This document shows positions 532-24,333 of a DNA stretch of 64,000 bases, piece by piece (within the stretch, counting starts at the first letter, position 1; each line of letters starts with the position of its first letter). The notes under the pieces were generated by a model. That model worked only from the letters and a program-made list of their open reading frames with translations. It did not search any database and had not been told where the DNA came from. Origin of the DNA: Candidatus Magasanikbacteria bacterium RIFCSPHIGHO2_01_FULL_33_34 (GTDB taxonomy: Bacteria > Patescibacteriota > Patescibacteriia > Magasanikbacterales > UBA922); the NCBI GenBank assembly GCA_001782825.1, contig MFPS01000007.1:20487-84486 (forward strand), given 5' to 3'. A program made the translations under genes and the position numbers.

Positions 532-987
532 TTAATTCAAATACCAAAGTGAATAATTAAGCACAGTAGCGAAAGTTACCCAGAGTAAATATGGCATCAA
601 CAAATAAGCTGAGGTTTTTTTTATTTTCCAAAACCTAATTATCAAAACTACAATTAAACAAAGAAGAATAACTATATTTATCAAAGCTAATCCAGGATTT
701 CTCAGACCAAAAAATACCATAGTCCAGATGGCATTGAAAAATAAATGTGTCCAAAACAACCAAAAATCTTTTGTCTTACCAACTTTCTGCCAAATCAAAT
801 AAATACTTATTCCCATTAAAAAATACAATGTGACCCAGACCGGACCAAACAACCAATTTGGTGGTGAGAAAGATGGTTTTACTAAAGTTGTATACCAAGT
901 TGGTATGGCTGAAACTGTGAAAAATGAACCAATAATCCCGGTCAATTGAGGTAAAATAAGAGAAATAGATAAGCGTTTGTAATTCAT
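532..987 (-). CDS. tspO: TspO/MBR tryptophan-rich sensory membrane protein
   Basis: 151 aa, 5 TM, Trp-rich. Motif PSFSPPNWLFGPVWVTLY and WNxxFF are typical of the TspO/MBR family. Confidence 0.75.
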   Translation of the reverse strand: MNYKRLSISLILPQLTGIIGSFFTVSAIPTWYTTLVKPSFSPPNWLFGPVWVTLYFLMGISIYLIWQKVGKTKDFWLFWTHLFFNAIWTMVFFGLRNPGLALINIVILLCLIVVLIIRFWKIKKTSAYLLMPYLLWVTFATVLNYSLWYLN

Positions 988-3663: not shown

Positions 3664-4788
3664 CTACTTGGATAATTCTTCTACTATTTGGTTTCTTATA
3701 CCCTCGTGCTCTTTATAATCTTTAACACCTAGTCTTTCCTTAGTATAACCAAAAAATAATTTATTTATAACACTTGGTTTTTTACTTGCTAACTTATTTA
3801 ATTCTGACAAGACTTCAGCATCTCCATATCTTTCAATTATCCTTTGCACTATTTCTGGATAATCCACACCATTTTTTTGTTTCATAGTTGCAGATATTGA
3901 AATTATCAAATCAACCAAATCTCTAGCTTTCTGTTCATTCAAAGGAACGTCTTCATTATAAGAAACTTCTGGATCACATATATGAATATTTTGATCTTTA
4001 TCAATAATCATATTAGGCAATATCAACTCACCCCAAGCTATACCCTTATTATGGATCTCTTTTACCTTGTCTACAATCTTGTCTGTAATTACCATTAATT
4101 TTTCACTATCCACATCCTCTGCAAATTCACACTCTCCCCAATCATCAACTTTATCTCTATTTGCATAAAGATCATACAAATTAACATTAGGTATATAATC
4201 AAGGACAATTGTATTATCAGATTCATTTGGTATAACAGGAATTTGACTTTTTCTTTCAAATTGACTCTTCCATTCTCCTGATTTTGCCTTTCTCATCTTA
4301 CAACCAGTAAAACGCTTCATTAAACTATCTAACCCTCTATGAACAGAAGAACCAGCATAATTTTTAATTAAAAACATTTTTCTTCCACTTGGTAAAACCA
4401 CTATTTTAGTTTGGGTACTAAAATTAGCAACCTTAGAATCATACTCTGTAGCGGTTTTATTTCCTTTCAAAATAGCTGGTGCTTGAAATCTAGTCTCCTT
4501 TTGTAATTTTTCCAACTCTGCTCTCAGAAAATCCCTATCATCATCTTCCAAAGGATCATACAACTGAATATCTGTTTGCGATCCAGATGCACCTTCTGTG
4601 GTTAATTCATCTATTTTACCCCTAACTTTTTTTTCTGAATCTTTGTCAGCTTTAACACCCTCTTCAACAATACTCTCAAGATCTTCAGAGTCATTTTTTA
4701 CACCAACATCAACATCCATTGGTTTTTCTACTCCTTTTACATAATCATACTCTGGCACACGTTCCCATTTTGGTTTATCTTCTGACAT
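3664..4788 (-). CDS. Atypical protein kinase-fold protein (RIO/Bud32/Kdo-kinase/APH-like) with acidic N-terminal extension
   Basis: FLIKNY (beta3 Lys), IVLDYIPNVNLYDLY (hinge) and IHNKGIAWGELILPNMIIDKDQNIHICDPE (catalytic loop plus DFG-like, with catalytic Asp replaced by Glu in WGEL). Assigned by motifs only. Confidence 0.45.
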   Translation of the reverse strand: MSEDKPKWERVPEYDYVKGVEKPMDVDVGVKNDSEDLESIVEEGVKADKDSEKKVRGKIDELTTEGASGSQTDIQLYDPLEDDDRDFLRAELEKLQKETRFQAPAILKGNKTATEYDSKVANFSTQTKIVVLPSGRKMFLIKNYAGSSVHRGLDSLMKRFTGCKMRKAKSGEWKSQFERKSQIPVIPNESDNTIVLDYIPNVNLYDLYANRDKVDDWGECEFAEDVDSEKLMVITDKIVDKVKEIHNKGIAWGELILPNMIIDKDQNIHICDPEVSYNEDVPLNEQKARDLVDLIISISATMKQKNGVDYPEIVQRIIERYGDAEVLSELNKLASKKPSVINKLFFGYTKERLGVKDYKEHEGIRNQIVEELSK

Positions 4789-8249: not shown

Positions 8250-8274
8250 AAAAACACTTAAAAAAGTGTTTTTT
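8250..8274. terminator. Bidirectional hairpin terminator
   Basis: aaaaacactt-aaaaa-agtgtttttt: perfect 9-bp stem flanked by A/T runs on both sides. Confidence 0.5.
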
Positions 8275-8345
8275 GTGGGCCGAGAAGGATTTACCCCTCG
8301 GGGCATAAACTCCTGCCTGCCGGCAGGCAGGTCTCATCCTTCTCT
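8275..8345 (-). other. Partial duplicate of the tRNA-Tyr 3' end carrying the 20-bp palindrome CCTGCCTGCCGGCAGGCAGG (8312-8331)
   Basis: 8275-8291 (gtgggccgagaaggatt) is identical to 8396-8412, the T-stem/acceptor 3' end of the adjacent tRNA-Tyr. The gagaaggat / atccttctc arms form a hairpin that encloses the palindrome. Confidence 0.55.
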
Positions 8346-8396
8346 CTACAAAAAATAAATACTTACATATTTATTCCAAAATATTTTATTTAAATG

Positions 8397-8478
8397 TGGG
8401 CCGAGAAGGATTCGAACCTTCGAAGGCTGAGCCAGCGGATTTACAGTCCGCCCCAGTTGACCGCTTTGGTATCGACCC
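8397..8478 (-). tRNA. tRNA-Tyr (anticodon GUA), type II with long variable arm
   Basis: Acceptor GGGTCGA/TCGGCCC, anticodon stem GCGGA/TCCGC with loop CTGTAAA, long variable arm, T-arm GAAGG-TTCGAAT-CCTTC. Confidence 0.85.
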
Positions 8479-23562: not shown

Positions 23563-24129
23563 CTAATTAGTCGGTTTTTTTATTTTTCTAAATTCAATTA
23601 CTTTCAAAATTACAAACAAAGCAAAAATTAATGCGTATTTTACAACTTCTTGTTTTGTAAGCGCTACATGCACAAAAGCCGCAAACATCACAAAATATGC
23701 AGAATAATGAAGCTTTTTCCAATTCTTTTTCAATTTTTTGATAGCATAATTATTGGCCGTAAGAGTCAAAATTGTCATACCTAGTCCTGCCACCAATCCC
23801 CAATAAATTGGTGTCCCCAAACTTCCCCAATATTCTGGTTTGTAAAATTGATACATATAATTCATACCAGCAAAATGGAAAAAAAATAACCAAAAATTTA
23901 ATACTCCCAATTCACGCCTATACGAAACAATTTTCCAAAATATTTTTAATTTGAATATCGCAGCCAGTGGCTTAACAAAAAGAATCACACCCAACAAATA
24001 CAATGCACTCTGTCCGAGTAATTTAAAAAACTCCAAACTTTTAATTTGTGTTGCCAATATTAACAGAAACACTGGCGTTAAATAATAAATCAATAAATGA
24101 GTAATCTTTCTAAACTTTATTTGCATCAT
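23563..24129 (-). CDS. MsrQ/YedZ-like ferric-reductase-type heme-binding membrane protein
   Basis: 6 TM; RRELGVLNFWLFFFHFAGM and KKLHYSAYFVMFAAFVHV align with the conserved His-bearing helices of MsrQ. No msrP partner nearby. Confidence 0.5.
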   Translation of the reverse strand: MMQIKFRKITHLLIYYLTPVFLLILATQIKSLEFFKLLGQSALYLLGVILFVKPLAAIFKLKIFWKIVSYRRELGVLNFWLFFFHFAGMNYMYQFYKPEYWGSLGTPIYWGLVAGLGMTILTLTANNYAIKKLKKNWKKLHYSAYFVMFAAFVHVALTKQEVVKYALIFALFVILKVIEFRKIKKPTN

Positions 24130-24146
24130 ATTATAATATTAAATAT

Positions 24147-24255
24147 AATGGGAATTATTATGAACGGATTCATTTGCCCCAACAGACAAATGCCTCGGAG
24201 CCCAAGGCGAGAATCCTGCCTGCCGGCAGGCAGGGAGTGAATAATAATTCCCATT
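24147..24255. repeat. Structured intergenic repeat, copy B: 15-bp perfect inverted repeat (24147-24161 / 24241-24255) closing the same GC-rich core plus the inserted 20-bp palindrome (24215-24234)
   Basis: aatgggaattattat / ataataattcccatt are exact reverse complements. The core is shared with copy A except for CCTGCCTGCCGGCAGGCAGG inserted between gagaat and gagt. Confidence 0.6.
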
Positions 24256-24293
24256 ATATTTATATTTATATTTTAACAAAAAAATTACAAAAC

Positions 24294-24324
24294 AAAAAGA
24301 CCCTTTACTAAAAGGGTCTTTTTG
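24294..24324 (-). terminator. Rho-independent terminator of rplJL operon
   Basis: AAGACCC-tttactaaa-AGGGTCTT hairpin with a flanking T-run. Confidence 0.65.
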
Positions 24325-24333
24325 AAAACGAAT

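Follow-up and report, generated by a model that had tools for sequence, protein, structure and literature searches.

A 20-bp palindrome shared by distant bacteria and viruses behaves as a mobile DNA element among the smallest known

Results

A structured repeat upstream of an MsrQ-like gene

The window (the whole stretch of 64,000 nucleotides analysed here, from Candidatus Magasanikbacteria bacterium RIFCSPHIGHO2_01_FULL_33_34) holds two copies of a structured repeat. Copy B (24132–24270, no strand assigned), delimited by hairpin detection, folding and alignment, sits between the rplL terminator (24297–24325) and the start of a ferric-reductase/MsrQ-like gene (23563–24129, minus strand). An earlier note on this DNA had placed it at 24147–24255; the position holds, and the enclosing hairpin is slightly larger. 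Its outer stem is A+T-rich and 30 bp long (24132–24161 paired with 24241–24270), and the core within reads CGGATTC, hairpin 1, GCCTCGGA, hairpin 2, GAGAAT, a 20-bp palindrome (P) and GAG. Copy A (417–520, no strand assigned), which is empty of P, sits between a TspO gene (532–987, minus strand) and a DEAD/RecQ-like helicase gene (start at 314, minus strand). Both copies are long A+T-rich hairpins with predicted fold energies 7–8 standard deviations below those of shuffled sequence on both strands (z = −6.9 and −8.0 for copy B). A short P-like hairpin, CCTGCCGACAGG, was read directly at 371–382, 35 nt from copy A on the side of the helicase gene start; it differs at one position from the 12 bases at the centre of P, and its kinship to P is uncertain.

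A metagenome scan with the core of the structured repeat returned one true relative, which lies between convergent gatB and miaA genes on a metagenome contig (L166:2150–2300), and one chance match in coding sequence (L165). The scan of viral contigs gave no match to the core, and a fuzzy regular expression applied to all loci examined found no additional copy. The structured repeat is a three-way junction in which the strands CGGATTC, GCCTCGGA and GAGAATGAG are invariant in all three known copies; the two inner hairpins and the long outer stem vary in sequence and keep their pairing. Between A and B the outer stem agrees only in its inner 9 bp, as if the structured repeat itself had landed within local hairpins. 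In a syntenic relative (L160), where rplL, the terminator and the MsrQ-like gene are spaced by 88 nt, the whole element is absent, and the structured repeat is thus itself an insertion. Comparison of A, B and L166 with Rfam 15, on both strands and at gathering and permissive thresholds, produced chance-level matches only and no family. The structured repeat may be an undescribed small RNA or mini-element.

An extra 20 bases in copy B

The palindrome P in copy B, CCTGCCTGCCGGCAGGCAGG (24215–24234, no strand assigned), is perfect over its 20 bp and has a G+C content of 80% in a window of 32% G+C, the whole 64 kb of which contains only about a dozen G+C-rich clusters. Across the junction at 492/493 copy A reads GGCGAGAAT|GAGTAAAAATAATAATT (GAGAAT|GAG); the same place in copy B reads GGCGAGAAT-CCTGCCTGCCGGCAGGCAGG-GAGTGAATAATAATT, with P between GAGAAT and GAG. 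Pairwise alignment and direct reading of the raw sequence thus bear out the earlier note, which had described an additional 20-bp palindrome in B and an exact empty site in A without target-site duplication (TSD): no base is gained or lost besides the 20, and the sequence goes on as GAGTAA in A and GAGTGA in B. The aligned cores are about 12% diverged and are separated by one insertion block, P, which in B is still 20/20 perfect. None of 100 dinucleotide-preserving shuffles of the window contained a match to P, even with three mismatches allowed.

The direction of the change had been left open between insertion and excision. Because the distant copy L166 and copy A are both uninterrupted at GAGAATGAG, the empty state is ancestral; P was inserted into B and not excised from A. 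As a means of dating the two copies, which had also been suggested, P is weak: it shows only that its insertion in copy B postdates the split of A and B, themselves already diverged to the extent given above. An alternative is that the 20-mer is a variable stem of the structured repeat, with A and B as natural versions of it and nothing having moved. Such a reading could draw on the predicted fold, in which P forms its own hairpin in the multiloop on either strand and the rest of the structure is unaltered. However, P splits the 9-nt motif GAGAATGAG, which is invariant in copy A and in L166 and so marks P as something other than an optional arm, and the cross-genome survey below contradicts the reading with the identical 20-mer in more than 160 unrelated contexts, a second one in the window included. 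We regard an optional helix as very improbable.

The window sequence has also been assembled in several JGI and ENA metagenomes, and copy B including P is the same in every independent assembly of the organism read, from which it follows that P is not an assembly accident. All assemblies of the organism are identical at both P sites in the window, and no empty allele was found among strains at either.

A second copy within the window

P occurs exactly twice in the window. The second copy (8312–8331, no strand assigned) has the flanks aaact^tctca, unrelated to those in copy B, and its site is the same in four loci that represent at least 24 contigs. It lies in a composite hairpin (8282–8344) whose outer stem, GAGAAGGAT paired with ATCCTTCTC, encloses CCCCTCGGGG and P. 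The left arm of this hairpin is part of an 18-nt duplicate (8274–8291) of the 3' end of a tRNA-Tyr gene (8395–8412), and the resulting direct repeat (minus-strand sequence AATCCTTCTCGGCCCACA) encloses 103 nt that include P. The apparent original terminator of tRNA-Tyr comes after the second 18-nt copy. By its layout, the arrangement from 8274 to 8412 looks like the remnant of an insertion into a tRNA 3' end. In the predicted folds both window copies of P occupy unpaired junctions, 3–4 bases off the enclosing stem.

P across bacteria and viruses

Exact matches to P were collected from 596 Gb of genomes, one genome per species. At least 120 stretches, each from another species, hold at least 124 exact copies with unrelated flanks; the calculated chance expectation in 596 Gb is about 0.5 at even base composition and far lower for the many carriers at 30–45% G+C. 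By record title, the carriers among the matches listed include 39 Bacteroidota, 36 Patescibacteria, 10 Omnitrophota, eight Planctomycetota/PVC and several other groups; none of the at least 120 carrier genomes listed is a cyanobacterium by title. A further 11 carrier bins are titled Gammaproteobacteria, and the two of these that were checked both encode Levybacteria- or Shapirobacteria-like proteins. Both are TPA bins titled 'uncultured Gammaproteobacteria' (L025 and L108), in which RmlB is named Levybacteria and GatB clusters with Shapirobacteria respectively, so that the labels look wrong. A second copy of P was found in four of the 120 genome loci listed (at most 8 kb each), or about one extra copy per 170 kb of loci examined, compared with two copies per 64 kb in the window; the copy number per genome appears to be low. 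Viral contigs of IMG/VR contain 42 copies in 31 contigs, one contig having six, and two composition-matched control palindromes each had no match in the viral contigs. A blastn search of GenBank phages and PLSDB plasmids (9.6 Gb) with a P-containing query found no exact P. A literature search with the 20-mer, its 14-base core and the peptide LPAGRQ found no paper mentioning P; keywords gave only analogues, namely REP, SDR and RPE-like elements and mitochondrial hairpins.

Because the majority of carriers were assembled from metagenomes and P is in some cases close to a contig end (L089, L093, L030), an origin of P in library adaptors, chimeric reads or assembly has to be weighed. We give it next to no credence. 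The carriers include long-read chromosomes and assemblies and cultured isolates (for example Winogradskyella echinorum KCTC 22026, Flagellimonas yonaguniensis, Longitalea luteola and Aquiflexum lacus), the sites are identical between independent samples and assemblers, the choice of flank and site is non-random, open frames are kept through P by compensating indels, and the 9.6 Gb of phages and plasmids are free of it. P is real: it is the same in independent assemblies, it is present in isolates and long reads, and it is read through in frame.

Filled and empty sites

For every P, the 14-base flanks to its left and right were joined and matched against all collected sequence. Empty paralogues or orthologues were recovered for 13 further sites, and at every one of them the filled and empty forms differ by the 20 bases alone, nothing being duplicated or lost. 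Together with copies A and B and the gatB genes described below, more than 15 filled/empty pairs are available, and none has a TSD. The 20-mer is also not tied to one longer context, since the flanks of the 167 instances read are unrelated. The proposal of the earlier note that the 20-mer is mobile is strongly supported by these pairs and by the unrelated flanks in many genomes. A true unit of 21 or 22 nt, that is P with a flanking purine, was rejected, as the pairs differ by exactly 20 nt; the bias in the flanks is accordingly a target preference. Three other readings were discarded: a transposon-excision footprint, since the palindrome has no flanking TSD; a CRISPR repeat, since the window has no array with spacers; and a tRNA, since P forms no cloverleaf.

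P-bearing partial duplicates often lie 70–330 nt from their empty paralogue (L087:4416/4490, L110:3709/4018, L156:515/844, L082, L113, L122 and L097), and the similarity stops only 12–25 nt to the right of the insertion point. The pattern could reflect survivorship, with a spare copy tolerating P, or a duplication linked to insertion.

The gatB genes of Shapirobacteria are the most clearly resolved case and record the event within a conserved gene. Two empty orthologues (L224 and L167) read GAT GAC GGT CAA ACY GTC. A gatB gene with 95% DNA identity to that of L224 (L223) carries a 20-nt variant of P at CAAA^CCGTC and a compensating extra T five bases upstream, for a net gain of 21 that restores the frame. 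In a further locus (L108) that codon holds canonical P, and the gene is 12 nt longer on balance, the result of a net loss of 8–9 nt beside P. Two GatB lineages were thus struck at one codon, and the pairs indicate that P arrives as a 20-nt frame-shifting unit whose genic copies persist only with a second indel.

Target sites

Among 123 instances the flank profile is biased at −3, −1 and +1 only, with no TSD. Junctions of the type A^T make up 24% and G^G/C^C 23%; pyrimidine^purine junctions make up 8%, compared with 25% expected. Inverted and direct repeats are enriched two- to threefold in the flanks over random positions. The sequence after P has no U-tract, and there is no enrichment of T past +1, so P is not a terminator; as an intrinsic terminator it was also dismissed because the rplL terminator is a separate hairpin.

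Several sites fall at the edges of stems. In five independent cases (L019, L041, L089, L103 and L156) P occupies the same spot in a tRNA D-loop, after A21 and before the 3' strand of the D-stem. Further tRNA sites are the variable loop of a phage tRNA-Met, which Rfam continues to score as tRNA (L149), and, in a duplicated tRNA-Gly (L110), the junction between the anticodon stem and its loop. With ARAGORN run with and without P, the P-bearing tRNA-like pieces proved to be mostly partial duplicates and not intact genes; the program left the P-split tRNA genes uncalled, although Rfam scores two of them as tRNA. On the viral contig L156 a group I intron (Rfam, 86 bits; 1182–1416) lies approximately 650 nt downstream of the P-bearing tRNA 5' fragment. 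In another viral contig (3300037242_000417), P stands at one loop/3'-stem junction in copies of a repeat hairpin that have compensatory stem changes, and other copies of the hairpin there are empty of P. P is nested within P at three loci (L022, L025 and L046) and lies inside heptamer arrays at four (L105, with the unit AATTACG, L125, L062 and L054), in phase in L105 and L125.

Among the matches listed, 17 of the 124 genome copies lie in a long open frame and most others outside one; the frameshift caused by 20 inserted bases would explain why the surviving copies are mostly intergenic. The frame stays open across P in eight conserved genes, always giving LPAGRQ: those for FtsK, RmlB, GatB, ScpB, ribosomal protein S6, two family-39 glycosyltransferase-like proteins (GT39) and one membrane protein (L017, L025, L047, L051, L057, L075, L078 and L108:3773). 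The two cysteine-encoding frames of P are used by none of the eight. In RmlB, P lies within a degenerate P, and the 20 + 22 = 42 nt keep the frame. All-against-all clustering of 3,191 open frames found no protein family recurring beside P and no candidate transposase.

These positions bear on the possibility that P has a conserved role, as a binding site or an RNA hairpin, for which it is kept by selection and spread horizontally, and that it is an adaptive addition to copy B or to the leader of the MsrQ-like gene. Conserved cis-sites such as parS resemble P in their identity and low copy number. P is identical over 20 of 20 bases across phyla at apparently few copies per genome, it is found in transcribed leaders, tRNA-linked regions and hairpins, and both window copies are fixed in the population. 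However, a function shared by an extra loop in GatB, S6, FtsK, RmlB, ScpB and GT39, by tRNA loops and by pseudo-tRNA fragments is implausible, close orthologues and paralogues do without P, and in the loci analysed P keeps no constant place with respect to genes, lacks a U-tract and has no gene linked to it. The syntenic relative, moreover, lacks the whole element upstream of its MsrQ-like gene. We consider a selected module quite unlikely.

Variants and companion hairpins

One asymmetric variant of P, CCTGCCTACCGGCAGGCAGG, was found 14 times among 10 viral contigs and in four further instances among genome loci, each with different flanks; no match was obtained for two other variants with a single mismatch. 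The dispersal of the asymmetric form indicates that copies derive from existing copies and argues against symmetric de novo synthesis at breaks. The same dispersal speaks against de novo local fold-back synthesis at CCTGCCTGCC seeds.

Some features of P would be accounted for by a repair scar, in which breaks receive the same 10 bases (CCTGCCTGCC) at each 3' end or have a self-complementary 20-mer ligated into them. Its two-fold symmetry, the lack of a TSD and the exact length of 20 nt fit the joining of two identical additions; the apparently few copies per genome and the wide taxonomic spread would be expected, and small indels such as those beside P in gatB (an extra T; a net loss of 8–9 nt) are common at repaired breaks. 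However, symmetric synthesis would not yield an asymmetric form that recurs 18 times in unrelated contexts while the two other one-mismatch variants are absent, and repeated strikes at the same loop/stem junctions are unexpected of random breaks. We also know of no source for such an oligonucleotide or templated addition. On balance we think a repair origin unlikely.

A second perfect palindrome, (N)TCCGCCAGCTGGCGGA(N'), accompanies P in seven loci from different phyla (L015, L019, L020, L036, L044, L112 and L114; within 8 kb, and within 50 nt in L015 and L020). It may be a sister element of P; its 55 stretches in viral contigs are not clearly above chance for a 16-mer. A viral contig locus (L158) ends in at least 11 tandem copies of a 21-nt unit close to P in sequence, CCATGCCTACCGGCAGGCAGG (3916–4142), and has several degenerate dispersed near-P copies as well. 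Another G+C-rich hairpin family, CCTCACCCC ... CCCTCTCC-loop-GGAGAGGGG, repeatedly adjoins P or its variant (L084:187, L091:1062, L233:977–996, L234:332–351 and 4512–4531, and L238:9738), the hosts being Peregrinibacteria, Patescibacteria and phage contigs. These neighbourhoods suggest a wider set of hairpin modules that may travel together, and the structured repeat probably also belongs to this traffic of nested hairpins.

Discussion

We consider it likely that P is an ultra-short, non-autonomous mobile DNA element; in its behaviour it is among the smallest known. P is a discrete 20-bp unit that has been added precisely, without a TSD or loss of flanking bases, repeatedly and in many lineages, and twice in the window alone. 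Copy B received it once A and B had already split, in an unpaired junction three bases away from the stem that encloses it. Insertion appears to favour unpaired bases that adjoin a stem in hairpin-forming sequence, and A^T or G^G junctions, and to avoid pyrimidine^purine. These preferences point to action on folded single-stranded nucleic acid, for which two candidate routes may be put forward: an HUH/Y1-type enzyme, provided in trans, might process single-stranded DNA, or the element might pass through RNA, the path suggested for SDR elements of cyanobacteria. Phage contigs carry P, and phages would be a conceivable route between phyla.

Several observations sit less easily with a mobile element. 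No mobilising enzyme and no recurrent neighbour family were found in the loci analysed, and the enrichment of repeats in the flanks, at only two- to threefold, counts against it, as does the apparently low number of copies in each genome. A selfish repeat is not usually identical to the letter from phylum to phylum, and the identity could instead reflect a conserved function or a universal cellular process. A frameshifted intermediate in the essential gatB gene is difficult to account for unless P and the compensating indel came in at the same time. The one constant frame, LPAGRQ in eight of eight coding copies, is not predicted by simple random insertion.

A mobile palindromic repeat of this size and unusual breadth has its closest described counterpart in the SDR elements of cyanobacteria. 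These small dispersed repeats (21–27 nt) of heterocyst-forming cyanobacteria are cited in PMC3116915 and PMC4390886. P is like them in size class, in forming a hairpin, in precise insertion, in nesting (L022, L025, L046) and in its occurrence in heptamer arrays (L105, L125). SDRs were reportedly found by Elhai and colleagues in 2008 to nest in their own copies, to be embedded in tandem heptamer repeats and to encode no protein, and are said to be confined to one cyanobacterial subgroup, with families that are genome-specific. P is unlike them in being one identical sequence over Bacteroidota, Patescibacteria, Omnitrophota, Planctomycetota, others and phage contigs; the two are set apart here by host range.

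Palindromic repeats tolerated in protein and RNA genes, where they add peptide loops, are known from Rickettsia as RPE. Unlike P, they are about 100–150 bp long, in frame by themselves and restricted to Rickettsia; P has 20 bp, shifts the frame, and requires a second indel (GatB) or a nested copy (RmlB). [quoted passage not shown]

REP and REPIN sequences are short, G+C-rich, extragenic palindromes that are non-autonomous, lack a classical TSD, are mobilised by RAYT, a Y1 HUH enzyme, and are thought to act as single-stranded hairpins (PMC3116915, PMC3733652). P shares with them its short G+C-rich palindrome, its non-autonomy and the lack of a classical TSD. In contrast, the REP palindrome is imperfect and headed by GTAG or CGTC, and REPs are present in hundreds of copies, specific to a species or genus and linked to RAYT, whereas P is a perfect palindrome with no conserved head, apparently few copies per genome, the same sequence across phyla and no linked gene in the loci analysed. 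No conserved tetranucleotide was found in the 123 flanks of P, and GTAG precedes two copies only, both in one viral contig (L145:2648 and L145:10690). The G+C clusters or repetitive hairpin-forming elements of mitochondria in yeast, sponges and fungi are short hairpins in A+T-rich genomes that are judged mobile by the evidence of filled and empty sites (PMC4478555, PMC2800124). P, an 80% G+C palindrome in 32% G+C DNA, resembles them; however, they are organellar, form lineage-specific families and often have short target duplications, whereas P is bacterial and viral and common to several phyla.

More tentatively, and as a possibility that we do not favour as firmly as mobility itself, P may represent an undescribed kind of mobile DNA, its sequence kept across at least nine phylum-level groups and phages because a widely conserved host or phage enzyme recognises the hairpin. 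It would insert at loop/stem junctions, in tRNA and essential genes among them, and be one of a wider set of modules together with TCCGCCAGCTGGCGGA and the asymmetric variants.

For annotation, P is a feature that splits tRNA genes and adds an LPAGRQ loop to conserved proteins, and it marks recent indels that are mistakable for sequencing errors. The structured repeat upstream of the MsrQ-like gene is better read as a target of nested-hairpin traffic than as a dedicated regulator of the gene. With its fixed sequence, clear filled and empty sites, target preference and cultured carriers, P makes it testable how very short repeats (REP, SDR and the mitochondrial G+C clusters) move. If it is truly mobile, the lower size limit for mobile DNA would be 20 bp, a hairpin alone, and P would be a rare case of a single selfish sequence that is common, unchanged, to very distant bacteria and their viruses.
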